Below are positions 2,503 to 22,694 of a DNA stretch of 64,000 bases, piece by piece. Source of the DNA: a virus. The notes under the pieces were generated by a model. That model saw nothing but the letters and a program-made list of their open reading frames with translations. It ran no database searches and was not told the DNA's origin. The DNA is taken from positions 1-64,000 of the IMG/VR virus record IMGVR_UViG_3300034418_009484; one strand, 5' to 3'. Each line of letters starts with the position of its first letter. Within the stretch, counting starts at the first letter, position 1. The position numbers were made by a program, and so were the translations under genes.

Positions 2503-2515
2503 TTAGAGGTATAAA

Positions 2516-2695: not shown

Positions 2696-2705
2696 AGGTA
2701 AAAAT

Positions 2706-3850: not shown

Positions 3851-3874
3851 TTTAAATTAATTTGGAGTATTTAA

Positions 3875-4195: not shown

Positions 4196-4199
4196 AAAC

Positions 4200-4742
4200 A
4201 TGGCAAGTTGGCAAAATACTAGTTTGATTATGTTACGCACTATGTTGAATGATGTAGGATGCGGTGAAACAAAATATTCAAACTCAAGGCTTGAGCAGTT
4301 ATTAATAACTTCTGCTTATTTTCTTCCTATTGATATAAATTTTAATAGTAATTATGTAGTAGATGTTGAGCAAAATACAATTTCTCCTGATCCTATTAAT
4401 CAAGATGATGGAACAGAATTTATTAACTTTATGGTTTTACGAGCGGCCTGTATTGCTGATGAAGGCAATTTTAGAAACGCTGCATTGCTACAGGGCGTTA
4501 CCGCTAGGTGTGGTCCTGCTGTGTTGCAGACTAGTAGTTATGGTCAATATTTAAAAGACCTTTTAACAGAAGGTCCGTGTAAAACTTATGAAGATTTGAA
4601 AAATGAATATAACTTTAGTTATGAAGGAAGAAAAATTATTAGAGCAGTTATGTCTCCGTTTGTATCTAATGATTTTTATCCTCCTATGAATGATGGTGGT
4701 TTCGGACAATTAGATACACAGAACCCACATAGAAGTAGATAA
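4200..4742 (+). CDS. Putative head-tail adaptor protein
   Basis: N-terminal LRTMLND...YSNSRLEQLL pattern typical of connector proteins; position before neck genes. Confidence 0.5.
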   Translation: MASWQNTSLIMLRTMLNDVGCGETKYSNSRLEQLLITSAYFLPIDINFNSNYVVDVEQNTISPDPINQDDGTEFINFMVLRAACIADEGNFRNAALLQGVTARCGPAVLQTSSYGQYLKDLLTEGPCKTYEDLKNEYNFSYEGRKIIRAVMSPFVSNDFYPPMNDGGFGQLDTQNPHRSR

Positions 4743-4761
4743 TAAAATTTTGGAGTAAAAA

Positions 4762-4971
4762 ATGACTATTATATATCAGCCTAAAGGCTCAGGTACTGAA
4801 CATAAAGAAGGTACTATCGTTGTAAATTCACCAAGGGGCGCTTCTGCTGCTTCCGGCATTACATCTAATTATACAATTGATACTTATGTTACAAATTTAC
4901 CAACAACTGGTACTATAAACGATAAATATGATATTAGATTTACTGGTTGCGGTGATGTTTGTGGAAGTTAA
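4762..4971 (+). CDS. Hypothetical protein (69 aa)
   Basis: GGAG upstream; in operon. Confidence 0.6.
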   Translation: MTIIYQPKGSGTEHKEGTIVVNSPRGASAASGITSNYTIDTYVTNLPTTGTINDKYDIRFTGCGDVCGS

Positions 4972-4973
4972 AT

Positions 4974-5498
4974 ATGAATGCTTTTTCAGGAATAATCAAT
5001 AGCGATTTTAAGAATCTATTTAATAATGCTATTTCTGCATTGCTATATGACGATTCTTGCACACTGCCATGTACTTTATACTATGGTGTTACCAAGTATG
5101 AAGATTGTGTAAATTGTGTGTATGATCCTATTGGGCAAAAATCTTCTAATAGATTTCAAGATGGTGGTCCTATTCCATTTCCTTTTGGAAGTATATGTCC
5201 AATGTGTAATGGGAATGGTAAAAAACCAGTTGAAACTTCGGAAGATATAAATTTAATGATAATTTGGAATGTAAAAGAATTTGTAAATTTTGGTACTGTA
5301 AATGATGGTACTGACGACATGATTCAAACTATTACTTTTGCAACAAATACTCCTAAGTTAGTTAGAGCTAAAGAAATAATTGTAGCAAGTGATATAGAAG
5401 AATATACAAGACATAGATTTGAAAGAGCCTCTATGCCAAAACCGTGCGGCTTAGGAAATACTACATTTGTTGAATGTATTTGGAAAAGGTCAGGGTAA
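4974..5498 (+). CDS. Putative head-closure/neck protein with Cys motifs
   Basis: ATG at 4974 preferred to TTG at 4959. CxNC...CPMCNGNG motif; synteny. Confidence 0.45.
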   Translation: MNAFSGIINSDFKNLFNNAISALLYDDSCTLPCTLYYGVTKYEDCVNCVYDPIGQKSSNRFQDGGPIPFPFGSICPMCNGNGKKPVETSEDINLMIIWNVKEFVNFGTVNDGTDDMIQTITFATNTPKLVRAKEIIVASDIEEYTRHRFERASMPKPCGLGNTTFVECIWKRSG

Positions 5499-6133
5499 TG
5501 AGTATACAGGCAAAAATTGAATTGCCAAATTTTGATTCAGAATTTGATAAAAATATTAAAAAAGAAATAACAAATATTATATTGAAAAATATTAATGGGG
5601 TTGTTTCTAATATAGAAAAAAGATTAAAGATAATTGTTAAAAACTTAATAGAATCTTCGCCAGAATATAGCTCTATTAAAAGTGGTGATTTAAAAGGCGA
5701 GCTTGGAATTGTTTCTTCCAGTTCTATTGATGCAATAATAAGTAAATTTGTAGAAAGCGTAAAAGTTGAATACAAAAAGAATAAAGGATTTGGAAATATT
5801 GTTATAAAGATAATAAACTCAGATTATTCTGATGTTTTAACATTACCAGAAGCTTCTTATGTTTATTCTTCTAAACGTGGAGGTGGTGTTATTGAATGGC
5901 TACGTTGGTTGCTTCTTGAAGGCACTTCAATAATAGTTACTGAATATGATTTTGAAGCAGGACCGAGAGGTAGAACTGGTAGGGGTATAATGGTGAAAAA
6001 AATTGGCGGTTGGTCAGTTCCGGTAGAATTTGCTGGAACTGCCACTGACAATTTTGTTACACGTTCGTTATCTTCAATACAGGATGATATAGATATTACC
6101 GTAAGGCAAGAGATTACCAAAGGTTTAAAATAA
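5498..6133 (+). CDS. Putative neck/tail-completion protein
   Basis: TAATG-coupled start at 5498. WLRWLLLEG...GRTG...W.VP.EFAGT..NFVTR; synteny. Confidence 0.45.
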   Translation: MSIQAKIELPNFDSEFDKNIKKEITNIILKNINGVVSNIEKRLKIIVKNLIESSPEYSSIKSGDLKGELGIVSSSSIDAIISKFVESVKVEYKKNKGFGNIVIKIINSDYSDVLTLPEASYVYSSKRGGGVIEWLRWLLLEGTSIIVTEYDFEAGPRGRTGRGIMVKKIGGWSVPVEFAGTATDNFVTRSLSSIQDDIDITVRQEITKGLK

Positions 6134-7092
6134 TGGCTGTTTGTGGATTTAATAAAAGACTTAATAAGCATGTTACCAATATAGGTACTAGCTTATTAAC
6201 ATCTCAAATTGAGACTAACTTAAAAAGCTATTTAGATTGGGGATTATTAGGCGTTGGTTCATTTTCAAATGTAAATATTCCAACTTCTGGTGCTTTTGGT
6301 GGAACTTTTGATAAACTTAGGCTAGTTGACGATCCTTCATATATAGACGGTCAAGTTTGGGAAAGTCCAAGAAAAGATTGGGTTTGGGAAACTGGTGTTT
6401 ATTATGACACTCAACCAACAAATATTTCTGGCGTAAATGTTAATGGTATTTTTTACGGTACTGGAGATGCTACATATGGACATCATTATAATTATCCATT
6501 AGGAAGGGTTGTTTTCGATTCTGCTATACCAGTAAATAGTAATGTTCAATTAGAATATTCGTATCGAAATGTTCAAACATATATAGCGGATCAAGCTCCG
6601 TGGTGGGATGAAATTCAATACGGATCTTATAGGGTTGACGATTCTACTTTATATGATGTTGGATCAGGAAATTGGCAAATATTATCTAATCATAGAGTTC
6701 AACTTCCAGCGGTTGTTTTAGAAGCAACTTCTAGAAGGTCGTTTAAGCCTTATGAATTAGGCACTGTGAGTAATTTTGTATACACAGATGTTTTATTTCA
6801 TATACTATCTGAATCAAGATGGTGGAGAAATCAATTGGTTGATATAATTTCTCTAGAAAAAGATAGAAGTATATGGCTTTATGATAATAATCAAGTTGCT
6901 AGTGCTACTGGATATCCTTTAGATCATAGAGGCATGAAAGTTTCTAGTCCATTAATGTATCCTTATTTAGTTGATAATTACAGATATAAAATGGCTAGAT
7001 TTTTTAATATGGCTGTAACTGAAATGGAAAGTCCTAATAGCAGGCTGCATAGAGCAACAGTTAGGGCTACTTTTGAGATTGTTATGGCTTGA
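6133..7092 (+). CDS. Putative tail terminator/completion protein
   Basis: QLPAVVLE...YELG motif; immediately upstream of the major tail gene. Confidence 0.45.
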   Translation: MAVCGFNKRLNKHVTNIGTSLLTSQIETNLKSYLDWGLLGVGSFSNVNIPTSGAFGGTFDKLRLVDDPSYIDGQVWESPRKDWVWETGVYYDTQPTNISGVNVNGIFYGTGDATYGHHYNYPLGRVVFDSAIPVNSNVQLEYSYRNVQTYIADQAPWWDEIQYGSYRVDDSTLYDVGSGNWQILSNHRVQLPAVVLEATSRRSFKPYELGTVSNFVYTDVLFHILSESRWWRNQLVDIISLEKDRSIWLYDNNQVASATGYPLDHRGMKVSSPLMYPYLVDNYRYKMARFFNMAVTEMESPNSRLHRATVRATFEIVMA

Positions 7093-7100
7093 TTTTTTTA

Positions 7101-7122
7101 AATTGGTGTATTTAATTTAAGG
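7101..7122 (+). promoter_or_regulatory. Candidate phage promoter (GGTGTA + AT-rich)
   Basis: GGTGTATTTAATTTAAGG upstream of the tail tube gene; similar motifs at 56782, 58124 and 59854 on the - strand. Confidence 0.45.
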
Positions 7123-7178
7123 TAAATAAAAAAATACAATTCCTACCTATTAAAGATAAGATAACTAGGAGATAAATA

Positions 7179-8327
7179 ATGGCTAATAATAATAGAATTT
7201 ATTACCCTATGCAACAGGTTGCTTTTCGTAAGCCTGGAACCACTGTATATCGTGAAGCGCATGGGGTTCAAAGTGTTGCTATTACAACAACATTTAATCT
7301 TGAACAAGCTTTTGAGCTTGGTCAACTTGCGATTTATGAAAATATTGAAGGTATTCCAAATGTTGAAGTTACTCTAAATAAAGTTTTAGATGGATATCCG
7401 CTTTTATATTGTTTGGCTACAGCTACTAATGCTGCTGGTACTACCATTGAAAAGCCACAATTGGTTCAAAGGGCAGTTGGTGAAACTGTCATGAGTTTGG
7501 GCATTTGGCCTGAAACACAAGAAGCTGTATCGGGTCTTCCTTCCACATTTTGTGAAATGTCAGGCTTGACCGTTTCTTCTGTTAGTTATACATTCCCAAG
7601 TGAAGGTAACTTTACAGAAGATCTTAGTCTTGCTGGATTTAATAAAGTCTGGAGTACTTATGTTACTGGTGCTTCAGAATGCGAAGCTCCGTGGGCAACT
7701 GGAAGTCCAACTGGCGCTCCTAGTTTTCAAGATAATGCAGACGCCCCGATTGGTTCTGGCGGTGTAAACCAAAGAGAAAATATGATTTGGGCCATTAGTA
7801 ATCAGCAGGCCAGTTCAGCAGGAGGTGGAGATTATGGTATTCTTCCAACTGATATTCCTGGCGTTCAAGGATCTGGTTTCTTAAATAGAAGTATTGCTCA
7901 TATTTCTAACGTTTCAGTTAGTACAGACTTTTCTAGAGAAGACTTGTTTGAATTAGGTTCCAGAAGCCCTTATGCTAGAACAGTTACTTTCCCTGTTGAA
8001 GTCACATGTTCTATTGATGTTATTTCTGTTTCTGGTGACTTGGTTAATGCTTTAGACAATTGTAATGCAGACGTTGCATGTGAAACACCATCTAACTTGA
8101 GCGATCAAAAAATTAGATTGGCAACTTGCGAAGGCACTAGAATTTATCTTGGAGAAAAAAATAAATTATCTTCTGTCAGTTATGGTGGAGGTGATGCTGG
8201 TGGTGGAAATGTTACAGTAACGTATGAATATCAGACATTCAATGACTTTACTGTTCTTCATTCTGGCGATAATTTTAACACATCAGGTCAAGATATTTGG
8301 TCGAAACGTAGTAATTATTTGACTTAA
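7179..8327 (+). CDS. Major tail (tube) protein
   Basis: Strong AGGAG RBS and its own terminator. Two related halves (EQAFELGQ / EDLFELGS); upstream of chaperones and TMP. Confidence 0.65.
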   Translation: MANNNRIYYPMQQVAFRKPGTTVYREAHGVQSVAITTTFNLEQAFELGQLAIYENIEGIPNVEVTLNKVLDGYPLLYCLATATNAAGTTIEKPQLVQRAVGETVMSLGIWPETQEAVSGLPSTFCEMSGLTVSSVSYTFPSEGNFTEDLSLAGFNKVWSTYVTGASECEAPWATGSPTGAPSFQDNADAPIGSGGVNQRENMIWAISNQQASSAGGGDYGILPTDIPGVQGSGFLNRSIAHISNVSVSTDFSREDLFELGSRSPYARTVTFPVEVTCSIDVISVSGDLVNALDNCNADVACETPSNLSDQKIRLATCEGTRIYLGEKNKLSSVSYGGGDAGGGNVTVTYEYQTFNDFTVLHSGDNFNTSGQDIWSKRSNYLT

Positions 8328-8360
8328 TAAATAACTGATGTTTGAGATAAATAAATTAAG

Positions 8361-8396
8361 AGGGGAGGGAGGTTGTCTCCTTTCCCTTTTTATTTT
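8361..8396 (+). terminator. Intrinsic terminator
   Basis: AGGGGAGGGAG-gttgt-CTCCTTTCCCT, an 11-bp stem with GU pairs, followed by TTTTATTTT. Confidence 0.75.
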
Positions 8397-8408
8397 AGGA
8401 AATAGGAT

Positions 8409-9467
8409 ATGGACCAACAAAAGAAATTTTCATTAATAAATAGAATATCTACTGGAATAATATTTCAATCAGTAGAAGGAAACCTCTATAAATTATTGCC
8501 TCCTGATAATGAAATCAAGGCATTATCTGAATTTGTATATCAAGAAATGTTATACAATACAAAGTTTGACCAATTAATAAATAAAAGTCAAGCATCTTAT
8601 TTTCTGCAAAAAAAGAATATTTGGATTCCTTCTGATGAAAAAAAATTAGAAGATAATAACAAATTTATTGACGAATTAAAAATAGCTTTGTATAAATCTC
8701 TATATAATAATAAAGAACAGAAGCAGATTAGAAAAAAAATATCAATTGTTCAAAAAAATATTAATAAGCTATTAATGGCAAAACATTCACTTGATTATAT
8801 GACTTTAGAAAATTTTTCTGAAACTATAAGGGATGAATTTTTAATTGCTAATTGTATTCATACTTTAGATAATCAAAAGGTTTACAACTATAATAATTTT
8901 TGGCAAAGCGATTCAACTATTTTAAATAAATTTACAACCTTTATTCAAATGAATGTTATATCTTCTGAGGAGTATAGGGAAATAGCTAGGTCTGAGCCAT
9001 TTAGATCATTATGGCTAATAAGTAAAAGTGATATTTTTTCTAAACCTTCTTTAGAATTAACATTAGATCAAAAGAATATGATTTTATATTCTAAGATGTA
9101 TGATAATGTATATGAAAGCCAGGATAGACCCTCTGATGAAGTTATAGAAGATGATTTGATGCTAGACGGATGGTTTTCATTTCAAAAGAAAAAGAATGAG
9201 TTAGAAAGAAAGCAAAAAGAAGTTGATGATCTACTCAACAAAAAAGGATCAAATTCTGGTGCTGGGGATGTTTTTGTTATGAGTCCTAGCAGAGATGAGG
9301 CTAAAAGGGTTAGCGAATTAAATGATTTGAATGCTAAGATGAAATTAAAGCAAAGAAGAAATCAGATTGAAAAACAAGGAGTAGTTTCAGAAGAAAAGTT
9401 TGCAGATGTAAAAATGGATTTAAGAAATCAGGCTATGCAAAAAATGGCTAATAGATTTAAAGGATAG
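8409..9467 (+). CDS. Hypothetical protein, possible tail assembly factor
   Basis: 352 aa, helical and K-rich; lies between tube and TMP genes. Confidence 0.5.
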   Translation: MDQQKKFSLINRISTGIIFQSVEGNLYKLLPPDNEIKALSEFVYQEMLYNTKFDQLINKSQASYFLQKKNIWIPSDEKKLEDNNKFIDELKIALYKSLYNNKEQKQIRKKISIVQKNINKLLMAKHSLDYMTLENFSETIRDEFLIANCIHTLDNQKVYNYNNFWQSDSTILNKFTTFIQMNVISSEEYREIARSEPFRSLWLISKSDIFSKPSLELTLDQKNMILYSKMYDNVYESQDRPSDEVIEDDLMLDGWFSFQKKKNELERKQKEVDDLLNKKGSNSGAGDVFVMSPSRDEAKRVSELNDLNAKMKLKQRRNQIEKQGVVSEEKFADVKMDLRNQAMQKMANRFKG

Positions 9468-9469
9468 TT

Positions 9470-9784
9470 ATGAATGATAAAGAGTATAAAGATTTTTCAA
9501 AAAAAAGATTTTCAAATAATTTAGATAAAAAATTTAATACAACAATTATTGGTTCTTTAGCTAAATTTGAAGAGAATTTTGGTTTTTTGTGGGGTCATGG
9601 AATTCCTTATGCGGATTTAACAGATCAGCAAAAAGAGTTCAGAAAGATTTGGAAAAAGACAAGAATTTCTATATTAGATTCTGGTCATTCTAATTTGAGA
9701 GCTTGTCAAAGCGAGTTAAACCAATACGATGTTCATTGGAACAAGTATGTTACTAATTTAATTAATTTTAATTCTGAGGAATAA
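9470..9784 (+). CDS. Hypothetical protein
   Basis: 104-aa ORF in operon. Confidence 0.6.
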   Translation: MNDKEYKDFSKKRFSNNLDKKFNTTIIGSLAKFEENFGFLWGHGIPYADLTDQQKEFRKIWKKTRISILDSGHSNLRACQSELNQYDVHWNKYVTNLINFNSEE

Positions 9785-9796
9785 TAGGGGATAAGT

Positions 9797-10687
9797 ATGA
9801 GTTCTAAGATTGAAAAGAAAAAAGAAAAAAGAGATTTTGAAGTTGATGGTGTTAAGTATTCTGTAATAAGACCTAATATTCAAATTTTAACAGGAGCAAA
9901 TAAGATTAGAAGGGAAACTTTTAATCAAGAGCTTGAGGCTGGTTCTTTACTAAGAGATCAGCTTGAAGAAGAGCTTCGCAAAAGAGAGCTTTGGAGTGAT
10001 GAAAGAGAAGCTAATTATCAAAGGCTTAGGGTAGAGATAGTAGATAGAGAATATAAATTGGCTGCTGGTGGTATAAAGCTTTCAGAAGCAAAGCAATTAG
10101 CATTGGAAATGAAACAAAAACGAGAAGAAATGGTAGAGCTACTATCTTCTAGAACAGATTTGGACTCAAACACTTGTGAAGGACGAGCAGATGCAATGAG
10201 ATTTAATTATCTTTTTGCTAATTGTTTGGTGTATTCAGATAGTGGAGAAAAGTATTTTAAGAATGGCTTAAATGACTATCTTTTAAATCAAGAAGATTTG
10301 GTTGGTTTGGTTGGAGCATCGGAATTCTTTTATCTGATTTCTGAGACAGATCAAGTTGATGATAAATTACCTGAAAATAAATTTTTAAAACAATTTAATT
10401 TTGTAAATGAAAAATATCAACTAGTTGATAAAGAAGGTAGATTGGTCGATCAAGAAGGTAAACATATTGATGAAAATGGAAATCTTATTGAATGGTTGAA
10501 TGATAAAGATTTTATTTATGTTGATATAAATGGTAGACAACTAGATGATGATGGCAACTTTAAAGTTGAATTTTCTCCATTCCTAGATGACGAAGGCAAT
10601 CCTATTGGATTAGAAGAAGATAAAACTGTAAAAAAAACAACGGCACGACGAAAAAAAACATCTCCTAAAAAAGAGGAAGTAGTTTAG
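9797..10687 (+). CDS. Putative tail assembly chaperone
   Basis: Directly upstream of TMP; acidic, coiled-coil, with DxxG short repeats near the C-terminus. Confidence 0.5.
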   Translation: MSSKIEKKKEKRDFEVDGVKYSVIRPNIQILTGANKIRRETFNQELEAGSLLRDQLEEELRKRELWSDEREANYQRLRVEIVDREYKLAAGGIKLSEAKQLALEMKQKREEMVELLSSRTDLDSNTCEGRADAMRFNYLFANCLVYSDSGEKYFKNGLNDYLLNQEDLVGLVGASEFFYLISETDQVDDKLPENKFLKQFNFVNEKYQLVDKEGRLVDQEGKHIDENGNLIEWLNDKDFIYVDINGRQLDDDGNFKVEFSPFLDDEGNPIGLEEDKTVKKTTARRKKTSPKKEEVV

Positions 10688-10766: not shown

Positions 10767-13700
10767 ATGGCTTTTAATATAAATGCACAGGTTGTTCTAA
10801 GCGGTCCTAAAAATATAAAGACCGTAAGAAGTAATATAAAAAAACAATTATCTGGAATAACAACAAATGTAAAAGTTGATTTAAGTAAAGCTGCAAATAC
10901 AAATTTATCTAACTTAAATAAACAGCTAAAAACAACAAATTCTATATTAAAGCAAGTTGCTTCAAGCGCAACGACTGCTAATAAGCAAATATCTAGTCTT
11001 TCCAAAGGTATAAATCAAGCTTCTACTAGTGCTGGTAATTTAGGTAGAAATGCCAATAACCTATCAAATTCTTTTAATAATGTTACTAAGTCTGTTGCTC
11101 AATCTAGGGGAGAAATAGAAAATTTTGGTAGGGATGCTGCACTAGCTATTCGTAGATTCTCTGCTTTTACTATTGCTACTGGCGCTGTATTTGGATTTAT
11201 CAGAGCAGTAAAAGAAGGTATTAAAGACTCAATTGAGTTTGAAAGACAATTATCTAGAATTGTTCAAGTTACTGGAGCAACAGATAAACAAATCAAAGGT
11301 TTAGAGTCAACTATTGATGGATTGGCAGCAACTTTAGGTTTAAATTCAAATGAATTAGCAAAAACTTCTGTTACGTTGGCGCAAACTGGTCAGACAATAG
11401 ATCAGGTAAGAAAGTCTTTAACTGCTATTAGTAAAGCTAGTTTAGCACCTACATTTGGTAATATTCAAGATACCACAGAGGGTGTTATCGCTGCTCTAAA
11501 TCAATTTCAGATTAGTGCAGATAGAACAGAAGCGGTTCTTGGTTCTTTGAATGCTGTTTCTAAAAGATTTGCTGTTGAATCTGAAGATTTGATTTCTGTT
11601 ATTCGTCGTGCTGGTGGTGTTTTTGCTACTGCTGCTGGAGATATTGCAGAACCAGAAAAGGCTCTTGCTGAACTTGTTGGTATTTTTACTGCTGTAAGAT
11701 CTACGACTAGAGAAAGTGCAGATACTATTGCAACTGGTCTTAGAACTATCTTTAGTAGAATTCAAAGAAAAGGAACTATTGAATTTTTAAAGAACTTCAA
11801 TATTGAACTTACAAATGCCCAAGGTCAATTTGTAGGTTTCTTTGAAGGTTTTAGAAGAATTGCTGAAGGACTAAATGATATACAAAGAAGGGGCGATACT
11901 ATTACTCTGGGTAGAGTAGTAGAAGAATTGGGTGGTATCCGTCAAATTGGAAAAATCTTACCTGCTATTCAACAATTTACTAAGGCCGAAGAAGCTAGAG
12001 CAGTTGCTTTAGCCGGTACTGAAAGTATTACAAAAGATGTTGCTATTGCTACGCAAACATTAGCAGTTCAAATACAGCAGTTGCAAGCAAGATTTCAAAC
12101 GTTAATTAAAGATATTTCTCAGTCTACAACTTTTCAAAGATTAGCTTCTTTTGCTCTTAGTACAGCGAATGCATTTATTACTTTGGCAGATGCTTTAAGA
12201 CCTGTTATTCCTTTATTAACTACTTTTGCTACAATTAAAATTGGTGGAGCAGCATTAGAATTTGCTCAAGGTTTCGTTGGAGGTATTAAAAAGGGTGGTG
12301 GAGCAGGAGGTGTAGGCAAGGGCTTATCTGGCGCTATTACAGGTCAGGGTGGAGGTGGAGGTCAGCTTAATCTGAAACCTTTGCAAACTGCCTTAACAGC
12401 AAATACAAATAGTGTTAATACTAATACTAGCTCTGTAAATCAAAATACAAACTCATCAACTACTTTAACTACTTCTGTAAGAACTTTAGATTCCAGTGTA
12501 AAAGCTTTAACAACAGCTATTAGTAGATCTAGCCTTACTGGTGGCGGCGGTACTTTAGGAAGAAGAAGAAGGGCTTTGGGTGGATCTATACCAAGATTCC
12601 AAAAGGGTGGTTTTGTAAATGGGCCTGGACACGCTCAGGGTGGTGTTATAGCGGAGCTTGAAGGTGGTGAATTTGTTGTTCCTAAAAAACAGGTTCAGAA
12701 ATTTGCAAGAGGTGGTAAAAAATCTAAGCTTAATAAAAAGAATGCTTATATATTTGATTTTGACGATACTCTTGCTACTACAGAAGCTAAAGGGTTTAAA
12801 GAATTTAGCGATCCTAAATTTGTTAAAAGTGCATCTGCAACAAGATATGCTTCTTTAGCAAAACGTAGGGCTTCACAAGGCGATGATATACATGTTTTAA
12901 CTGCTAGGTTTGGTGGAGGTGGAATTAGAGAAGCTATTGCTGATTTTATGGCAAAGAATGGAATAGCAACAAAAAGTGTTATTGCTGTTGGTGGTGCGTT
13001 TCCAAAAGATAGAGAACCTGGGAAAAGACCTGGGACAACAAGAAAATTAAGTACTGCTTCAAAGAAAGCCAAAGTATTATCTAAACTTTCTAATAATTAT
13101 AATAAAATAACATTTCTTGATGATAATGCTGAAAATCTTATACAGGCAGCTAAGGTTAAAGGAGTTTCTTCTGTAGAAGCGAAAGAGTCAAAACTGTTTA
13201 AAAATAGAAAGGCTCTTGGTGGAATTATACAAAAGCTTGCTGTTGGAGGAAAAGTCAAGGCAGGCGAACTTAGAATTGGTGATATTTTAGACACTGGAGA
13301 AATTGTAAAAGCCGCTTTAAAAACAGGTAATCGACAGAGAAGAAAAATAAATCTAACATTAGAGAAAGATGGTGTTAGGAAAACAGAACGGGTTGAGTTC
13401 TCTAAGCTGTTTGGTTTAAAGAGCAGAGGAAAAGGTATATCTCCAATAAAACTTAATAGCGGGGGAATTATACAAAAGTTTGAACTTGGAGGTCTTACAA
13501 GAAATGCAGTAAGAAACCCCGGAAGAAACCCATTAAGCGATATTTTTCAGGTTAATCAAGCGGCTGGTGCTAAATTACCTATACAAAATACTAAACAATT
13601 TGGTTCTTTCTTAAAGAAAAAGTTCGGCAATAAAGTTTCTGCGGCAGATTTCGGAGAATTTTCACCCACCGAACAAAAAGCTCTAGTTAAAGAATTTAGA

Positions 13701-16700
13701 GGTGGAGAGTCAGCACCTAAACAACCTAAACAACCAAAACAACCAAAACAAGATGGAGATCCAGATAATCTTACTTCGATAAGTGGAAAACTAGGAAGGG
13801 GTCGTGGTGCTAGAATTGTAGGAGCGCAGATTCAAGGTGTTCCTTTTGGTGTTACGTTCTTAAATAACCCACCATCCAAATTGCAACAAACAATTAATGG
13901 TGTTTTGAAGGATGGTAACCAAACAGGAAAGTCTACACTAAACAAGCTTATTATAAAAGAGCTTCAAAGATTTGGTGGTCCTGCCACTAGAGATAAAACT
14001 AAAAGATTTGGAATAAAATCTGGCGCACAACTTTCAGCGCCAAACGCACAGATTGGAACTTTTAAATCTAATGGTAAAAAGGCTTTTGAAGATGAGGTAG
14101 AAGGTGGTATTCCTCCAATTTTTGAAAATGCTACTAGAAATTTCTTTGAATCTGCTGGTATTTCTGGTCCTGCACCTAAATTCTCCCTTAATCAACTTGT
14201 TAGTAAATCTGCCGTTGGTTCTATTACTGGTCAATTCTTTGAGGCATTTACTAGGTCTGTAGGTAATCAGCCTATTTTGACTGGCGCTCAAGATGATGCG
14301 GATGACATTTTTGATTTCAGATCAAAACCTCAAAATGCAGACGCACTTTTTACTAAATTTGCATTGCCAAATGAATTTAAGAATACAGGTAGTAGCACAG
14401 AAAATATTAGAAATGCTATTTCCAAATCTTTCTCTTTGCCCGGAACTTTGGTTGATTTTCAAACAGAAGTATTTAAATTAAATCAACAAAGTGCTAATAG
14501 AGGCGGCGAGATAAATAATGCCAATGCAATATTAACTCCCGGTGAGGCTGTATTCGGTGCTAAGAAAGCTTCTCAAATAGGAATTTCTAATTTAAGTAGG
14601 TTAAATAAAACAGGAGATGCTTCTGGGTTAAATATTTCTAACTCTGATTTTTCTATTGTTCCCGGTAGTGGAAATAGTGATACTGTTCCTGCAAGTCTTG
14701 AGCCTGGGTCTTTTGTTATTAAAAAATCTTCTACACAAGAAGGTTTGCAGACTTTTAATTCTGGTGGCAAAGTTCAAAGATTCCAAGGGGGTGGAAGTAA
14801 AGGTGGAGGTCTTGGTGGTGGTATTACTCAGTTGGCTTTGTTTGCTAGTTTTGCGGATTTGGGCGAAAGCGCTAATCAATTAATAACATTATTCTTTGGT
14901 TTAGAAACTGTTTTAGGTTTATTTGGAAAAGATCTTAGTGATTTAGGTAAGAGTTTTAAAAAACAAAACAAAGCTTTAACAGATTTGTCTTCTCAACAAA
15001 GAAAAGAAGCAAAAAAAGTTAGAGGAAGACTTAAAGCTCCTATTAGGGGAGCAAAAGTTAGCGGATTAACAGCTTCAGCATCTAGGGCAGCAAGATTAAA
15101 AGCAGTAAGATCTGTTAGAGGTACTGGTGGATTTGGAACCGCAGGAAGGTTTGGAAGAACTGCTGCTAAAATTGGTGGCAAAGGTGGTCTTGTTGCTATT
15201 GTTGCATCGCTTTTGGTTGATCCAATAACACAGGCCATAAAAACTGGTTTTGGAGAAGTAGAACTTGAAACGGGACAAAGAGGTTTTAGAGGCCCAGGAG
15301 GTTTAGAGACTGCTCAAGCTATTGGTACTGGCAGCGGTGCTGTATCTGGCGCTTTAGCTGGTGCTGGTTTAGGTATTGCTGGAGGTCCAGTAGGAGCTTT
15401 AATAGGGGGTATTGCTGGTGCTGCTGTTGGTGGTATAAAAGGATTTTTTGATGCAGCATCGGCTCAATTAGAATTTCAGGCTTTTGACCAATTTAATAAT
15501 GCTTTGGGTAAATCTACTGAATTAATAGATGAATTTAATAAAAATGCTAGTGTAGAAAATTTAGGTAAATTAAATCAAGCTACTGCTGAAGTGTTTTCAA
15601 GTTTTGAAAGATTAGCTAAAAATACAATTGAAGCAAGAGAAACATCATTTAGTAGTCAATTACTTGGTGGATTAGATACAAATATTTTTGATAGTTTCAG
15701 TACTGCTTCTGGTCTTTATGAAAAAAGTGTTTTTCTTTTTGATAAAGCTGCTCAGTTTTTTGGTCGTGGTACTAGCGATCTTGTTAAAAGTATTGAAAAA
15801 TCAGCAACAGCACAAAAAAGAGGTGGTTTGTTTGGTGATATTCTTGCTGGTATTGCACCTCGAATTGATAAAATAGCCAGTGCTAATATTAAAGGTATTG
15901 AAGCAACATTTAATGCTATACCTTTAGATCAATTAAAAGCCTTAGATTTTAACGATATTGATTCTTTAGATGCAGTAAAAGATCAACTAAAAGATCTTGG
16001 CGTTGAGGCGAAAGATGCTGAAATTGTTCTTGGAAATTTAGAAGCAGCTTTAACACTTCAAGGTATTAATGATATATCTTCTGAATTACCAGAGGCTGCT
16101 AGAAAAGCATTCTTAGGAGCGGCAAGTGAAGCTTTAGCAGCAGGAACTAGTATCGCTGATGCAGTAGAACTAGCATTTTCACCTGACCAATTAGTTAGAC
16201 TTGGAATAACCGCTGAGAATGCTAAACAAATAGTTGAACAATTAAATAATACAATTGGTGAAGAAGCAGTTGCTGAATTAATAGCTTATCAAAAAGAACA
16301 GGTTGAGCTTAGTAGAATTTTATCAGAAACTTCTAGGGAAATAGATGCTTTTGGTGCTGCGTTAAATTTATTGTCTGGTGGTATTGCTGGTATTGGTTCT
16401 GATTTTTCTACACTTCTTGGAAATATACAATCAGATCTTGATGCCAGTCTTAGTAATGATTTCACGGTAAGGAGACAACAAGCTCCTAATGTGTTTGAAA
16501 ATGTCACAGGAAGACTGCCTGATGAAATCAATAACGCCGTAAATAATTTAGGAAAGATTCTAAATACAGATGTATTAGATGGTGCTGGTAAAATTGTAAA
16601 CTTGCAAAATGAGTTACCTAGAGCATTAAAAGATACTGTTACTGCTTTAGCATCGCAAACTTCTGGAGGTATTAGTGGTGCTGGTCAATTTACAGACGAA

Positions 16701-19700
16701 CAAATATTAGATGAATTTAAAAATGCGATAACAGAATTTGATAAACTGCCATCATTTGTTCAGCAAAACCTTGAAGCTACTTTACGAGGCATCGTAGGTG
16801 GGAGTAGACAGGGAGAAGGAGGAAAAGGAGCAGTATCCTTACAGAAATTATTAGAAGAAGGTAATTTTGACCAACTAAATCAGATATCAGTAGAATTTGC
16901 TGAAAATCTTTCTGAAATACAAAGTGCTGTAAATGATTTTCAAAATGCTATTGCGCAAGGCGCTAATAATATTAAGAAAATTAATAATTTAAGATTAAGA
17001 ACTGACTTAGAAATTAACGCTAAGAGACAGTCTTTTGAAGATAGATTTGGTCAATTCTTGAATCAAACTGTTGACGAAAGAGCCAAGGCTGAGAAAAGAT
17101 TAAGAGATACTATTGATACACAATTGCGTGCTGGCACTGGTGGTCCTGGCATTGGTGCTGGAGGTATTGATGCTGATGCTTTAGCTAGAAGAAGGGAAAA
17201 ATTACTACAAACAAGAGATAATTTACAAAAGCAACTGGAAAATCCTGAACTTGGTCAAGCTGAATTTGATTCTTTAACTAAGGCTCTTGGTGATAACGCT
17301 TCTAAATTAGATGGTACAACAGCAGCATTAAAAACATTATCAGAAGATGTAACACAGCTTGAAGCTGTAGAAGGAGAATTAGCAAAGATACAAGAATCTA
17401 GATTAACAGGAAGGGAAAGAGCAAGACTATTTGCTTCTAGAGCGCAAGATGCATCAACTCCAGCAGAATTTGCCAAATTATTTCAAGATTTTCTTGCGCC
17501 AACAATTGCCATTGCTAAAGCACAACAGGGTGGTCCTATTGGTTTTGGAGAAGCTGCTGCTATATTAGGAGATCCGCAACAGATTAAAGATGTTTTTGGT
17601 TTTGATGATGCTCAAATAGAGTCTATATTAGCCGGAACAACACAGGGAATTGGTGATACTTTTGCTAATCTTTTAGCTTCATTTGGTGTCGGTAGAAATG
17701 CTGCTCCTATTGCTAGAGGTTTGTTTGGGGCTGGTGCTACAGAAGCGGGGTCTACTGCTAAAGAACAAGAACTTCTTGCCGAAGCTGCTAGGTTACAGCT
17801 TGAAAGAGAACAGGCACTTCTTGCATTAAGAGATCAAAATATAACTTCTGCCGAAACACTTCAGCAACAGTTTTCTGATCTTATTGGAACAACTTCTCAG
17901 TCTCTTACCAATCTTATTGCTAAGGCTCAAGAATTAAGAAGTTCATCTGTTATACCTCCTTCTGCTGGTTCAGAACAGCAAGCAGAACAAGATATAGCTC
18001 AAGTTTTTAGAAATGCAGTTAAACCTTTAGATAGTACTGGCGCTGAATTAAGTAATGCTGCTAGTAGTTTACAAAGAGCAGCACAGGCTATACAAGAGGC
18101 TGTTAAAGCGCCAGAAGTAAAACCTGTTAAAAAAATCAGTGAAACTGCTATAAATCAAAACATTCCTCCTTCGTTTCCGGTGTTACGACGTCAAAACGGA
18201 GGTTCTATATTTAAACCAAGAGGAACAGACACAGTTCCTGCCATGTTGACTCCTGGCGAATATGTAGTAAATGCAAAAGCTGTAAAAAAAGGATCGAATC
18301 TTCAGTTATTAAAAGATATAAATGATGGTAAGGTTACTATTCCAAAATTTGCTAAAGGTGGAATGGTTGGTTATTTTGATAGAGGGGCTTTAGTACCATC
18401 GGAAGATGAATTTATATTACAGGAATTAGTAAAGCGAGAAGACAAAAGTATTTTAGATGCGACTAAAACTATTCCTAATCTAAGAACTCCTTCGCGAGAA
18501 TCAGTTGAAAAGTCGGCTGCTGATAAATTATCAGAATTAAAAAGACAAGGGTTTAATCAAGATGCTAGCAAGCTTGCTGGTGTGTCAAGCAGTATTCAGA
18601 AAACTTCTGGGTCTTTCGGTTCAGGAACAGATGATAAACTTCTTGATTTTTTCACATTGTTAAATCAAATTTCTGCTCAAGAAATTGAACGTAAAGATAA
18701 AATAAGGAATTCAGCCGCAGGGGAACGCGCAACTGATCTTTTAAGCTTACCTTTAGAGCTACCCTTTCTTCCAGAAAAGATTTTTGAAACAACGACAGGA
18801 ACAGATCTACGTAAATTTTCACAAACTCTAGATCCATTCGCAGTGGATGAAGATCGAAATCAAAAAGGTATAAGAAGTCTAGCAAATAAATCTTCAGATC
18901 AGATTATAGGTGGGTTTGCAAATCTCGTTCAAGGAGGAATTAATAGCGTAATTGGTCGTGATCCAACCGATTTACTAGATCAGATTGATTTTGCTGCGGT
19001 GGGTCGTGGTGACGGTTCAGCAAGTTTTGACGATATACAATTAGCAGAAATACTTGAATTGCAAAAAAAGGCTGCTGAAGGTATTTTAAAAAGCAGGACC
19101 AGTTTGCAAAGCAATGAAAATTTAAGCAGTCTTAGTAATCTAAGACTTTTTGGGAACGACGAGGATTTTAGAGCGGCGGGTGGCACTTTTAAAGATAGTG
19201 GAGAAAGAAATATTTTACCCGAAGAAGAAGCTTTGTCTAATTTTTTAGCTATAAGAAGAAAGGCAGATCAAGATACACTTGCAGAATTTCGTAAAAAAAA
19301 TCCCACCAATATTGATCCTAATCTTATTATACCAGCAGGACAAACGCCAGAAGATTTTATACAAACTGATAGAGGCGATACAAGTGTAGCAGGTTTGCTA
19401 AAGAGGGCGCCAAATATTATTAGCAATGAAGGCATTAGAGATTCAATTTCAGGCTCAACACAACAGGAAAGGTTGGAGGCAGCGAAAAAAAGAAATGAGG
19501 CTTTCTTTGCTGATAAGAAAAAATTGGATACTACTAAAACAAAAAATACAAGCAAGTTTGGTGAGATGGGACAAAGCTTTGGAGAGGCTGCTCCTTTTCT
19601 AGAAAATGTTCAATCTGGTAGAATTTCTGGACTAGCCCCTTTAATACCATCACTGCCTCGTTCACAATTTAGCAATGATGAGAAGTATCAAGATTATAGG

Positions 19701-21044
19701 CAAAAATTAAGAGAAGAAAAGTTTGGTAATGAGTCTGGAAGGCTTGAAGCCCAGTTTAAGGCACAAGAGCAAACTAAACCACAAATAAAACAAATTCAAA
19801 AAGAAATAGCAAAAACAATACCAGGGTCTACGAGAAGGAAAGAACTTGAAAAACAATTATCAGAACTTGAGAATCCTAAAATTTCTTCTAAGAAACAGGC
19901 TTCACCAAGATCAAAACAAGGTAGCATTACCAAGGGTAAACCTGAGAGATCAAAGGTTAGTACTATCAATGGTAAAGCTATAACGGACAAAAGTGGAAAG
20001 GTCATAAAACCAATCAAAGATTCGCCTTTTATTAACAAGCCGACCACCTTAACTTCAGATGAGTTAGCTGCTAAAAGAGAGGCGTTTTTAAGCACAAAGC
20101 CACAAAGTAAAGCTGAGTCACCGCCTGAAAGAGAAAAGAAAGAGCAAGAAGCTAGAATAAAGAGACAACAACAACCACAAAGTCAAGCACCCTCAAGTGG
20201 CTCTAAAGTTGACCAGCCCACACAGTTAACTGCTCCACCGCAACGCAAGATAACGCGAGAACGAATTGAGCAAACGAAAGGCTTTGACTTCAAAGCTGCT
20301 ACACGAAGGGCCATAGATGCTGATGAAAGAGCCAAGGCTGAGAAAAGACTAAGAGATACTAATGCTCCTGAAGGATCAAATCGACTTTTAGACACTAAAT
20401 ACAGTGCTCCTGGTCTTGAGAATGTAGACCCAGTGACACTTGCTGGCGGGCAAGCACAATTCGCTGACCAACAAGCTCGATCAACAGCGGTACGACAAAG
20501 GCAACGTAATGCTCCTGCAAGTATACCAACAGATTTACCTGCAACTTTAGGATTACCTCCACAACAAGAACCAGCAACAAATCTACAACAACAAGAAAAT
20601 TTAAGAAGCAGACAAGCAAGAATACGAAGAACACAGGGTGAAGGAGCAGCATCTAGATTTGGACAAACTTTTGGATTAAGAAATAGTGGTCCTGGGCAAA
20701 GAGCAGGATTGCCTGGAGGTCAAGGCCAAGGTCAAGCTGGCGCTCAAGATTTTACTGCTTTTTCAGATTCAGTAGCAAAGCTACAGGAAACCACTAAATC
20801 ATTAACAGCATTTGCAACTCAATTAAATACTGCTGCTGATAAATTAGCACAATTACAAACTATTGAAGTTAGTTTAAATGCCAGAGTTGAACCAATTCAG
20901 GTTATATTAAATGGGGCAAGTATTATTAATGAATTTGGTGATACTGCTAAGAAAGAGATATATAATCAGCTTGTAACTAAATTAGAAGACGAATTTGTTA
21001 AGAAAACTCCTGATGGCAGTATAAATGAACCGACACTTGGATGA
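10767..21044 (+). CDS. Tail tape measure protein (3425 aa) with embedded enzyme domains
   Basis: TP901-type core (FERQLSRI..., LNAVSKRFAV, ELVGIFTAVRSTTRESADTIATGLRTIFSRI), glycine zipper, long helical tracts, DTVPAMLTPGEYVV motifs and an internal HAD domain. Confidence 0.9.
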   Translation: MAFNINAQVVLSGPKNIKTVRSNIKKQLSGITTNVKVDLSKAANTNLSNLNKQLKTTNSILKQVASSATTANKQISSLSKGINQASTSAGNLGRNANNLSNSFNNVTKSVAQSRGEIENFGRDAALAIRRFSAFTIATGAVFGFIRAVKEGIKDSIEFERQLSRIVQVTGATDKQIKGLESTIDGLAATLGLNSNELAKTSVTLAQTGQTIDQVRKSLTAISKASLAPTFGNIQDTTEGVIAALNQFQISADRTEAVLGSLNAVSKRFAVESEDLISVIRRAGGVFATAAGDIAEPEKALAELVGIFTAVRSTTRESADTIATGLRTIFSRIQRKGTIEFLKNFNIELTNAQGQFVGFFEGFRRIAEGLNDIQRRGDTITLGRVVEELGGIRQIGKILPAIQQFTKAEEARAVALAGTESITKDVAIATQTLAVQIQQLQARFQTLIKDISQSTTFQRLASFALSTANAFITLADALRPVIPLLTTFATIKIGGAALEFAQGFVGGIKKGGGAGGVGKGLSGAITGQGGGGGQLNLKPLQTALTANTNSVNTNTSSVNQNTNSSTTLTTSVRTLDSSVKALTTAISRSSLTGGGGTLGRRRRALGGSIPRFQKGGFVNGPGHAQGGVIAELEGGEFVVPKKQVQKFARGGKKSKLNKKNAYIFDFDDTLATTEAKGFKEFSDPKFVKSASATRYASLAKRRASQGDDIHVLTARFGGGGIREAIADFMAKNGIATKSVIAVGGAFPKDREPGKRPGTTRKLSTASKKAKVLSKLSNNYNKITFLDDNAENLIQAAKVKGVSSVEAKESKLFKNRKALGGIIQKLAVGGKVKAGELRIGDILDTGEIVKAALKTGNRQRRKINLTLEKDGVRKTERVEFSKLFGLKSRGKGISPIKLNSGGIIQKFELGGLTRNAVRNPGRNPLSDIFQVNQAAGAKLPIQNTKQFGSFLKKKFGNKVSAADFGEFSPTEQKALVKEFRGGESAPKQPKQPKQPKQDGDPDNLTSISGKLGRGRGARIVGAQIQGVPFGVTFLNNPPSKLQQTINGVLKDGNQTGKSTLNKLIIKELQRFGGPATRDKTKRFGIKSGAQLSAPNAQIGTFKSNGKKAFEDEVEGGIPPIFENATRNFFESAGISGPAPKFSLNQLVSKSAVGSITGQFFEAFTRSVGNQPILTGAQDDADDIFDFRSKPQNADALFTKFALPNEFKNTGSSTENIRNAISKSFSLPGTLVDFQTEVFKLNQQSANRGGEINNANAILTPGEAVFGAKKASQIGISNLSRLNKTGDASGLNISNSDFSIVPGSGNSDTVPASLEPGSFVIKKSSTQEGLQTFNSGGKVQRFQGGGSKGGGLGGGITQLALFASFADLGESANQLITLFFGLETVLGLFGKDLSDLGKSFKKQNKALTDLSSQQRKEAKKVRGRLKAPIRGAKVSGLTASASRAARLKAVRSVRGTGGFGTAGRFGRTAAKIGGKGGLVAIVASLLVDPITQAIKTGFGEVELETGQRGFRGPGGLETAQAIGTGSGAVSGALAGAGLGIAGGPVGALIGGIAGAAVGGIKGFFDAASAQLEFQAFDQFNNALGKSTELIDEFNKNASVENLGKLNQATAEVFSSFERLAKNTIEARETSFSSQLLGGLDTNIFDSFSTASGLYEKSVFLFDKAAQFFGRGTSDLVKSIEKSATAQKRGGLFGDILAGIAPRIDKIASANIKGIEATFNAIPLDQLKALDFNDIDSLDAVKDQLKDLGVEAKDAEIVLGNLEAALTLQGINDISSELPEAARKAFLGAASEALAAGTSIADAVELAFSPDQLVRLGITAENAKQIVEQLNNTIGEEAVAELIAYQKEQVELSRILSETSREIDAFGAALNLLSGGIAGIGSDFSTLLGNIQSDLDASLSNDFTVRRQQAPNVFENVTGRLPDEINNAVNNLGKILNTDVLDGAGKIVNLQNELPRALKDTVTALASQTSGGISGAGQFTDEQILDEFKNAITEFDKLPSFVQQNLEATLRGIVGGSRQGEGGKGAVSLQKLLEEGNFDQLNQISVEFAENLSEIQSAVNDFQNAIAQGANNIKKINNLRLRTDLEINAKRQSFEDRFGQFLNQTVDERAKAEKRLRDTIDTQLRAGTGGPGIGAGGIDADALARRREKLLQTRDNLQKQLENPELGQAEFDSLTKALGDNASKLDGTTAALKTLSEDVTQLEAVEGELAKIQESRLTGRERARLFASRAQDASTPAEFAKLFQDFLAPTIAIAKAQQGGPIGFGEAAAILGDPQQIKDVFGFDDAQIESILAGTTQGIGDTFANLLASFGVGRNAAPIARGLFGAGATEAGSTAKEQELLAEAARLQLEREQALLALRDQNITSAETLQQQFSDLIGTTSQSLTNLIAKAQELRSSSVIPPSAGSEQQAEQDIAQVFRNAVKPLDSTGAELSNAASSLQRAAQAIQEAVKAPEVKPVKKISETAINQNIPPSFPVLRRQNGGSIFKPRGTDTVPAMLTPGEYVVNAKAVKKGSNLQLLKDINDGKVTIPKFAKGGMVGYFDRGALVPSEDEFILQELVKREDKSILDATKTIPNLRTPSRESVEKSAADKLSELKRQGFNQDASKLAGVSSSIQKTSGSFGSGTDDKLLDFFTLLNQISAQEIERKDKIRNSAAGERATDLLSLPLELPFLPEKIFETTTGTDLRKFSQTLDPFAVDEDRNQKGIRSLANKSSDQIIGGFANLVQGGINSVIGRDPTDLLDQIDFAAVGRGDGSASFDDIQLAEILELQKKAAEGILKSRTSLQSNENLSSLSNLRLFGNDEDFRAAGGTFKDSGERNILPEEEALSNFLAIRRKADQDTLAEFRKKNPTNIDPNLIIPAGQTPEDFIQTDRGDTSVAGLLKRAPNIISNEGIRDSISGSTQQERLEAAKKRNEAFFADKKKLDTTKTKNTSKFGEMGQSFGEAAPFLENVQSGRISGLAPLIPSLPRSQFSNDEKYQDYRQKLREEKFGNESGRLEAQFKAQEQTKPQIKQIQKEIAKTIPGSTRRKELEKQLSELENPKISSKKQASPRSKQGSITKGKPERSKVSTINGKAITDKSGKVIKPIKDSPFINKPTTLTSDELAAKREAFLSTKPQSKAESPPEREKKEQEARIKRQQQPQSQAPSSGSKVDQPTQLTAPPQRKITRERIEQTKGFDFKAATRRAIDADERAKAEKRLRDTNAPEGSNRLLDTKYSAPGLENVDPVTLAGGQAQFADQQARSTAVRQRQRNAPASIPTDLPATLGLPPQQEPATNLQQQENLRSRQARIRRTQGEGAASRFGQTFGLRNSGPGQRAGLPGGQGQGQAGAQDFTAFSDSVAKLQETTKSLTAFATQLNTAADKLAQLQTIEVSLNARVEPIQVILNGASIINEFGDTAKKEIYNQLVTKLEDEFVKKTPDGSINEPTLG
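12741..13200 (+). other. HAD-superfamily phosphatase domain inside the TMP
   Basis: Motif I YIFDFDDTL, motif II VLTAR, motif III Lys (SKKAKVL), motif IV ITFLDDNAENL. Confidence 0.85.
13716..13751 (+). repeat. 9-nt tandem repeat encoding (PKQ)4 linker
   Basis: CCTAAACAA x2 then CCAAAACAA x2. Confidence 0.9.
17072..17112 (+). repeat. Direct repeat copy 1 (DERAKAEKRLRDT)
   Basis: 39/41 nt identical to 20321-20361. Confidence 0.9.
20321..20361 (+). repeat. Direct repeat copy 2 (DERAKAEKRLRDT)
   Basis: 39/41 nt identical to 17072-17112. Confidence 0.9.
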
Positions 21045-21068: not shown

Positions 21069-22667
21069 ATGGCAACTGTTATGAAATATGGCGATTATCA
21101 ATTTCGCCCAGTTCCACTACTAGATATTTCTAAAACTCCTATTAAGTTAGGAAATGATTATAACGCTTTGGGCAATGAATATCAAGTTGTTTTAGATGGA
21201 GATATATTATTAACTACTGGTAATATAGCTTCTGGAACTCATCAAGTTTTTACAGAAATAAATGAATTAAAAGATGCTTTTGCTCAAGATGGCAAACTTT
21301 TTGTAGCTTATTGTTCTGGAGTAGGAGGAACAGAAGAAAAATTATTTGTTAGTGGATATCCTATTGTAGATGATGTCAGCATAAATGTAGAAAGTGATAA
21401 TTATACTAGAAGGGCAGGATTTAATATAAGTCTTAAAATGCCTTCTTTATCAGGGGTGTTTGATGGTTTAAATACTGGTAATGGATATATAGGACTTCAA
21501 TCAAATACAGGAATTTTTCTTTCTGATTTTTCTGAGAGCTATGATGCTTCTATTAGAGATGATTATTTTCCAGCTATTACCCATTGGACTCAAGGATCAT
21601 GTAACAATAAAGAAGAATATCCTGTAGTATTAGATATTAATAGACAAGTAAGTGCAAAAGTAAGACCTGTTTATTCTGGTGGTCAAGTAGTATTTAATTT
21701 AGAAAGCGGCGTTCAGTTTATTAATGACTATTTAAATGCAAATACACAATTTGATTATACAGGCATTGTAGGAATAACCTCAACTACTTTACCTAGATAT
21801 AATCTTAAAAGAGAAGTTTCTGTTAATAAATTTGATTGGACAATTGATGCGACAGAATCTTATGTGGCTATTAATTATGATGAAAATACTTATGCTCCTG
21901 ATACTGGAGCTATAGAAACTTATACTGTAGATGTTAGTCGTTCTGATTATATATCAACTGTTACAGTTCAAGGAGAAATACAAGGTTTAGCATTAACTAG
22001 TTTTGATGGAGGTACAATAGCAGAAACTTCTGAAAATAGAGAAGGCTTTATATCTACTCAAAGTGCTTATTCAAATGCTAGGGCATTTTTAACTGGTATA
22101 AATGATTTAACATTCTGTAGAGCATCAGAAGTTTTTGCAGAAAATTCAGGGTTTTTATATGGCGATTCTACTTGTAGGGCATCACCTCTTACCTTAATTA
22201 ATAAGGTGTCAAATTCAACGATTGGCGTTAATCCTGTTAATGGACTAATAACATATAGTATATCTTATAATAATAGTCTTCAAAATTGCTTTAGCATTAA
22301 TCCTTGTATTTTATCTTCTAATGCAACAATTACAGACAATTTAGCAACAGATGTTTTTGCATCACAAACAATAATTGGTAGAGGTGCGCTTGGTCCGATA
22401 TTGCAAGATATTAATGCGAGTACTGCTAGAGTTAAACAATTAAATGTAGAACTTGTTGTGCCTCCTTCTACGGGTTGCGATACACTTATTGCTATTACTG
22501 GTGATATTCCATTGACTGAAGTTGATTCATTAATAAGTTTAATATCTGGAGATTTAGTAACTAATTATGATCAAGTTTTTGTTTCAACAAATACACAAAA
22601 TTGGAATTTTACACAAGGAAGATATACAAGAACAGTTGCTTGGACATATAATGATTGTGAGAACTAA
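21069..22667 (+). CDS. Putative distal tail/tail-tip protein
   Basis: First gene after the TMP; beta-rich. Confidence 0.5.
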   Translation: MATVMKYGDYQFRPVPLLDISKTPIKLGNDYNALGNEYQVVLDGDILLTTGNIASGTHQVFTEINELKDAFAQDGKLFVAYCSGVGGTEEKLFVSGYPIVDDVSINVESDNYTRRAGFNISLKMPSLSGVFDGLNTGNGYIGLQSNTGIFLSDFSESYDASIRDDYFPAITHWTQGSCNNKEEYPVVLDINRQVSAKVRPVYSGGQVVFNLESGVQFINDYLNANTQFDYTGIVGITSTTLPRYNLKREVSVNKFDWTIDATESYVAINYDENTYAPDTGAIETYTVDVSRSDYISTVTVQGEIQGLALTSFDGGTIAETSENREGFISTQSAYSNARAFLTGINDLTFCRASEVFAENSGFLYGDSTCRASPLTLINKVSNSTIGVNPVNGLITYSISYNNSLQNCFSINPCILSSNATITDNLATDVFASQTIIGRGALGPILQDINASTARVKQLNVELVVPPSTGCDTLIAITGDIPLTEVDSLISLISGDLVTNYDQVFVSTNTQNWNFTQGRYTRTVAWTYNDCEN

Positions 22668-22694
22668 TTTTATTAAAATAAGGAATAAATAAGA

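Follow-up and report, generated by a model that had tools for sequence, protein, structure and literature searches.

In a 64,000-nucleotide stretch of viral DNA (positions 1 to 64,000 of IMG/VR record IMGVR_UViG_3300034418_009484; hereafter, the window), one open reading frame (ORF) encodes a tape measure protein (TMP) of 3,425 residues, which we call P0001. We consider it probable that P0001 is the TMP of a large uncultured tailed phage and that its conserved backbone carries cargo fenced by copies of a small joint unit, termed U here, with the joints serving as seams for processing or docking. The source is a viral record of 92.4 kb, estimated to be 59% complete, and the window is part of it. 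P0001 matches PhageMin_Tail (PF10145) at 72.2 bits, against a cutoff of 33.2, as well as eight PHROG tape-measure families. No close relative was found among 50,697 deposited phages, where the best matches are TMPs of Bacillus phages at 22 to 26% identity; by megablast, the region had zero matches to known phages, and a related-locus search with the cargo region as the query returned no relative. Our comparison set consisted of 13 related viral contigs whose TMPs share 41 to 68% identity with the N-terminal core (best segment). Seven of these TMPs are complete, at 1,956 to 3,044 residues (two are of equal length, on different contigs), and another extends beyond 3,833 residues.

The initial annotation of this DNA had listed paired and single basic-x-x-x-GG motifs along the protein, and every one of them exists in frame in P0001. 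The pattern [RK]xxxGG occurs 16 times, against 4.3 ± 2.0 expected from 2,000 shuffles, none of which reached 16; the narrower [RK][FLR]xxGG occurs 10 times (0.8 expected), and there are 61 GG dipeptides (34 expected). Seen from the relatives (alignment A1), the motifs do not stand alone but form the N- and C-terminal edges of a unit of about 55 residues with a conserved core. Each U begins with an (F/Y)AxGG-type edge and a short spacer rich in glycine; the core, DTVPAxLTPGEFV, comes next, and after it a short helical segment and the closing edge. What had been described as a paired motif is an extended N edge. The firm consensus in the wider family is (F/Y)-A-x-G-G-x-V, and the basic residue ahead of the motif is only moderately enriched there (30% versus 12% background).

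Using a broad U profile built from 400 copies, we placed four significant copies in P0001 (U1, U2′, U2, and U3; Table 1), and a fifth, decayed copy at residues 812 to 847 is marginal (E 0.026 in a single-sequence search). U1 is of a variant common to three related contigs (L003, L005, and L007) and has glycine runs on both sides; AlphaFold2 (AF2) models it, with low confidence, as a β-hairpin plus a helix. Two orphan paired motifs flank a 65-residue module downstream, and the DNA encoding them (13218-13249 and 13461-13492) is 84% identical over 32 nucleotides, which looks like a duplication or recombination scar.

The unit is widespread. Searched against 1.84 billion cluster representatives, the profile matched 23,394 proteins at an E value of ≤0.001, and the best matches were proteins of 2,000 to 7,900 residues with 4 to 11 copies each. 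Among the best 120 of 926 giant matches, nearly all carry PF10145 alone. U matched no Pfam family; two PHROG families, both of unknown function, cover it. Among PDB sequences, the profile found residues 732 to 785 of lambda gpH (E 1.5e-5) and two sites in gp16 of mycobacteriophage Douge; in the published lambda and Douge structures, the TMP is ordered at its extreme C terminus only. We also considered U as a muralytic element and rejected this idea: lambda has U, yet its virions are reportedly without such activity (PMC12617516).

We surveyed the architecture of 263 TMPs and clustered the segments between U copies. The first U starts at a median of about residue 509, and the last ends about 131 residues before the C terminus. 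The order of parts is conserved: an N-terminal core, U, segment family 1 (module M), U, segments of about 1,100 residues, further U copies, and a short tail. M occupies slot 1 in 192 of the 263 TMPs. Because segment order is conserved across TMPs, most slots are conserved rather than free cargo bays. P0001 deviates from this order twice, with extra material in slot 1 and with an unusual tail of 888 residues after U3, where the survey median is 131. Its cargo region follows the N-terminal TMP core, precedes the hydrophobic segments, and is fenced by U copies and half-copies. A lone FASGG without a U core occurs at residues 2143 to 2148 of SPbeta YomI (L018), about 140 residues from the C terminus, which is the position of the last U in U-bearing TMPs.

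The best-supported cargo of P0001 is a cassette that we assign to the haloacid dehalogenase (HAD) phosphatases, as a capless member with a fold like that of T4 Pnkp and GmhB. HAD motifs I (DxDxT), II (S/T), III (K), and IV (DD) all align with two stand-alone HADs, P0257 and P0258, and with seven other TMP-borne copies. The stand-alone proteins (181 to 185 residues) have an extra cap segment and lack the GG motif. AF2 predicts, with moderate confidence because the alignment is shallow, a Rossmannoid core with a predicted local distance difference test (pLDDT) score of 80 to 88, and Foldseek with this model returned the T4 Pnkp phosphatase (5uj0_A, TMt 0.62), GmhB, and AphA with a probability of 1.0. 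In likeness, the cassette appears closest to phosphatases that act on nucleic acid ends or sugar bisphosphates. We looked for signs in DNA composition that the HAD is a recent import, and composition gives no such mark.

The HAD is absent from the TMPs that are closest by backbone (50 to 60% core identity, where the region is covered) and present in seven more distant ones (25 to 46% core identity), in slots 1, 2, and 4; the HADs are up to 51% identical in a case where the backbones share 40%. Each of the eight HAD cassettes finishes with [KR]-x(2,3)-GG, about 20 residues past motif IV, and seven of the eight have an (F/Y/L)xxGG motif no more than about 15 residues from their start. In cassettes that adjoin U, the U edge acts as the fence.

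A second type of cassette behaves similarly. At least 12 TMPs carry an ADP-ribosyltransferase (ART)-like cassette, most of them motif-fenced like HAD, and the copy in P0196 (residues 1293 to 1520) scores above the PF03496 cutoff. In 12 ART-like cassettes the STS and ExE motifs are invariant, and a conserved Tyr-Ser stands at the usual Arg position. Further ART-like cassettes occur in P0185, P0023, P0122, P0097, P0218, P0079, P0020, and others, with two copies in P0037. The JGI name of P0097, glutaredoxin 2, is not supported by Pfam. Recurrent motif-bounded cassettes in slot 1 also contain HExxH or a Walker-A-like GSGKT (P0028, P0037, P0091, P0070, and others; fragment families 1, 5, 7, and 24); these readings remain leads because Pfam does not recognize the cassettes of P0091 and finds nothing in P0191.

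We then asked where insertions fall, using 188 insertions of at least 80 residues between TMPs whose flanks share 35% identity or more. Their borders lie within 10 residues of a motif in 47% (left) and 67% (right) of cases, against 11% for random positions, a 4- to 6-fold enrichment. After collapse to 37 independent insert families the value is about 50%, and the excess holds at a distance of 25 residues (63 to 79% versus 24%). These comparisons show, at the level of sequence, that TMPs gain and lose cassettes at the motifs and that cassettes move there from one TMP to another. The earlier proposal that the motifs are insertion boundaries is supported. Its companion, that the slots between GG motifs hold interchangeable domains, applies to the HAD and ART-like cassettes, which vary among homologous TMPs, and fails for most slots, which are conserved.

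The remaining material in slot 1 of P0001 comprises the 65-residue basic module, whose start is the decayed U, and M. The module has no homologue in the 263 TMPs. M, described earlier as a module of about 330 residues ending in a nuclease-like motif, belongs to a conserved family that is homologous to slot 1 of L003, L009, L014, and P0002 to P0007. Five of its positions are near-invariant among the approximately 74% of 229 family members that align there (G1155, E1159, D1183, D/E1203, and K1205), and the order E, D, (D/E)xK resembles a PD-(D/E)xK pattern. M has no PDB sequence match and no usable atlas lead, and Pfam recognizes no domain in the 65-residue module, in M, or in the C-terminal tail. 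Structure prediction module by module, which had been suggested as a check, backs the HAD by its fold and yields low confidence for the 65-residue module. A 9-nucleotide tandem repeat at 13715-13750 encodes PKQ in about four copies, in the N-terminal part of M.

The TMP backbone bears M, with its enzyme-like invariant residues, and optional cassettes, here the HAD. In the reading we favor, this cargo would reach the envelope or the cytoplasm of the cell during infection, because TMPs exit the tail before the DNA. The U joints are most likely exposed seams for TMP processing or docking during tail maturation or ejection, because lambda gpH is cut near the N-terminal side of its U and T5 pb2 is cut three residues before a GG. 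Cleavage of lambda gpH into gpH* and gpHC occurs in the glycine-rich C-terminal region and leaves a gpH* of 78 to 79 kDa (Hendrix & Casjens 1974; Tsui & Hendrix 1983, reviewed in PMC12617516); this mass places the cut at about residues 710 to 731, immediately N-terminal of lambda's U (residues 732 to 785), and gel mass alone is what places it. T5 pb2 is cut after R1127, which separates the muralytic pb2C (PMC10038345), and the context is FVPR/AEGG (the slash marks the cut). Both ideas of the initial annotation about function, a polyprotein cut at the motifs and the delivery of effectors, are plausible, and the lambda and T5 cuts are precedents that agree with the first.

Several points weigh against this reading, beginning with the uncertain position of the lambda cut. 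For T5 pb2, the U profile gives no match, and the likeness is by eye only. The HAD scores below the Pfam gathering thresholds (HAD_2, 13.4 bits; HAD_PNKP, 12.3 bits) and is also subthreshold in PHROG. The AF2 model of M is poor, with a mean pLDDT of 52 and no strands at the motifs, and a nuclease fold is unsupported. BLAST may tend to end its segments at conserved motifs, and the indel statistic would then be too high. Pfam sees no extra domain in the cassette-rich P0091 and P0191, where the hints are at the motif level, and a Pfam domain other than PF10145 occurs in just 3 giant TMPs among the best 120 of 926. The SLT and M23 domains of SPbeta YomI, both enzyme domains within a TMP, are not fenced by these motifs, so fencing does not hold for every TMP. 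As for the proteases that had been put forward to cut the motifs, a ClpP-like gene does exist (58745-59248, minus strand; PF00574, 71.9 bits), whereas no C1 peptidase (PF00112) was matched anywhere in the 92-kb record (about 59% complete), nor were JAB or M23 peptidases, further candidates for cutting at GG, found there.

The main competing explanation is that the joints are structural only. U would then be a small folded node that oligomerizes, docks the TMP to the tube lumen or hub, or binds the tail assembly chaperone; the cassettes would stay tethered without any cut, and the GG linkers would simply tolerate insertions. The hairpin-plus-helix shape that AF2 gives to U fits this explanation, as do the conserved hydrophobic positions (F/Y, A, and V at +6), which suit packing, and the usual location of the last U some 131 residues from the C terminus, near the hub-binding tail. 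It would also agree with the Douge and lambda structures, in which just the extreme C terminus of the TMP is ordered, and no cut has been reported for Douge. We nevertheless judge it somewhat unlikely. The U models are of low confidence (pLDDT 53 to 71), and sequences of this type lie at or near the cuts in lambda and T5. Moreover, the same linear motif stands beside unrelated domains and is absent from stand-alone HADs, a pattern typical of a site read by another factor. A more far-reaching version of the processing idea holds that (F/Y)AxGG joints are general sites of TMP maturation or release, including the step from lambda gpH to gpH*, and that TMPs with multiple U copies are true polyproteins that free enzymes ahead of the genome against defenses based on nucleic acids or nucleotides, with a Pnkp/GmhB-like phosphatase here and an ADP-ribosyltransferase elsewhere. 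We regard this version as doubtful and rather unlikely as a whole.

A different objection concerns the cargo. The inserts may not be cytoplasmic effectors at all: they could work in the envelope or during tail assembly, or could be decaying passengers of a TMP that is merely a tolerant scaffold. The enzymes known to be borne by TMPs are wall hydrolases (T5 pb2C, TM4, SPbeta YomI, and P1 Sit), HADs of the GmhB type act on sugar phosphates of envelope precursors, and M and most slot contents lack a recognizable enzyme family. On the other hand, P0001 and seven further TMPs keep all four HAD motifs intact, and 12 ART-like cassettes show no variation in STS and ExE; this argues for selection for catalysis of kinds that are normally intracellular. 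We regard this objection as improbable. Finally, the motifs could be a chance product of glycine-rich, low-complexity linkers with no specific role, in keeping with the abundance of GG dipeptides in P0001 and the glycine runs flanking U1. This is barely credible given that no shuffle reaches the motif count, that conservation is position specific over thousands of copies, and that profile E values fall to 1e-24.

Table 1. Features of the tape measure protein gene in the window
Feature	Position (nt)	Strand	Evidence or remark
TMP gene, 3,425 aa (P0001)	10767..21044	+	Single ORF; PF10145; eight PHROG TMP families
PhageMin_Tail core, aa 183-372, within the conserved N-terminal core (aa 1 to ~590)	11313..11882	+	Pfam; relatives
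U1, aa 599-657: paired N-edge motif, diverged core, C-edge motif	12561..12737	+	Profile E 1e-9
Predicted capless HAD phosphatase cassette, aa 658-813, motifs I (DxDxT), II, III, and IV	12738..13205	+	Alignment, AF2, Foldseek
Paired motif and 65-residue basic module, aa 814-894	13206..13448	+	Start is the decayed U
Second orphan paired motif, aa 895-909	13449..13493	+	Motif scan; DNA repeat of 13218-13249
M module, aa 910-1243, including PKQ repeat; conserved core aa 1150-1210 (nt 14214-14396)	13494..14495	+	Homology to slot 1 of relatives
U2′, aa 1244-1286	14496..14624	+	Profile E 5e-10
U2, aa 1297-1346, paired motif at its end	14655..14804	+	Profile E 1e-14
Hydrophobic, glycine-zipper-like segments, aa 1466-1560; candidate membrane-spanning part	15162..15446	+	Kyte-Doolittle 19-residue windows ≥1.5
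U3, aa 2472-2537, canonical copy	18180..18377	+	Profile E 1e-24; first row of alignment A1
C-terminal 888 residues after U3, low-complexity, K/Q/E-rich	18378..21041	+	Conserved part is the last ~76 aa only (with L003)

The length of P0001 and its hydrophobic segments fit the TMP type, but the neighboring genes add no support from Pfam or PHROG tail-gene families: ten large flanking ORFs (430-10687 and 21069-27746, plus strand; one encodes 1,683 residues) have no match in either collection at an E value of ≤0.001. The structural module around the TMP gene is, judged by these searches, very divergent. The 3,425 residues of the TMP include zero Cys, zero Trp, and two His. The gene also contains an in-frame duplication of 41 nucleotides (17072-17112 and 20321-20361, 39 of 41 identical) with the copies 3,249 nucleotides apart. 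The encoded peptide occurs at residue 2106 and again at residue 3189, and recombination of the two copies would remove 1,083 codons.

TMPs are usually viewed as rulers and channel formers that carry a wall hydrolase at most. The joint unit is conserved and unannotated, occurs in over 23,000 protein clusters, and fences swappable enzyme cassettes in giant TMPs, which points to a widespread delivery of premade enzymes with the first protein that enters the cell. The unit also offers a concrete candidate for the site and manner of lambda gpH cleavage, a question that is 50 years old, and its joints suggest natural seams for engineering cargo into phage tails.

Parts of this picture are already known, namely, the cleavage of the lambda and T5 TMPs, TMP-borne wall hydrolases, and the concept of polyvalent proteins. 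In the literature that we searched, of which our coverage is incomplete, neither the joint unit nor TMPs with HAD or ART cassettes are described. Polyvalent proteins are large, are delivered with the DNA, and combine unrelated effector-type domains (ART, kinase, GNAT, and peptidase); processing into units has been proposed for them (Iyer et al. 2017, PMC5512222). P0001 itself has one supported enzyme, the HAD, and M, and its relatives add ART-like and other cassettes. The polyvalent-protein paper never mentions TMPs, describes no conserved joint motif, and proposes a zincin peptidase as the processor (PMC5512222), whereas HExxH, as expected of a zincin-like processing peptidase, is absent from P0001. 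With the 3′-phosphatase domain of T4 Pnkp and with GmhB, both capless C0 HADs, the cassette shares the DxDxT nucleophile motif, motifs II to IV, and the lack of a cap; it differs in that identity is only 13 to 18%, there is no kinase domain, and the HAD is embedded in a TMP.

Among TMPs, those with embedded wall hydrolases (TM4 motif 3, the SLT and M23 domains of SPbeta YomI, and the SLT domain of P1 Sit) resemble P0001 in having enzyme domains inside the expelled ruler protein, although the cargo here is a predicted HAD phosphatase, and an ART-like domain in relatives, rather than a wall hydrolase. T5 pb2 offers the precedent of a TMP that is cut between a hydrophobic stretch and an enzymatic piece, and it differs from P0001 in carrying a single C-terminal cell wall enzyme instead of internal cassettes. 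Residues 1124 to 1155 of T5 pb2 (L017), just past the cut and overlapping the published "metallopeptidase motif," resemble the U edge and core by eye, but the U profile gives no score there. Lambda gpH has a single U directly after a glycine-zipper hydrophobic stretch, the same arrangement of a hydrophobic region next to U as in P0001. Lambda gpH, however, has one U and no enzyme cargo, while P0001 has four clear copies of U and decayed ones, with cargo between them.

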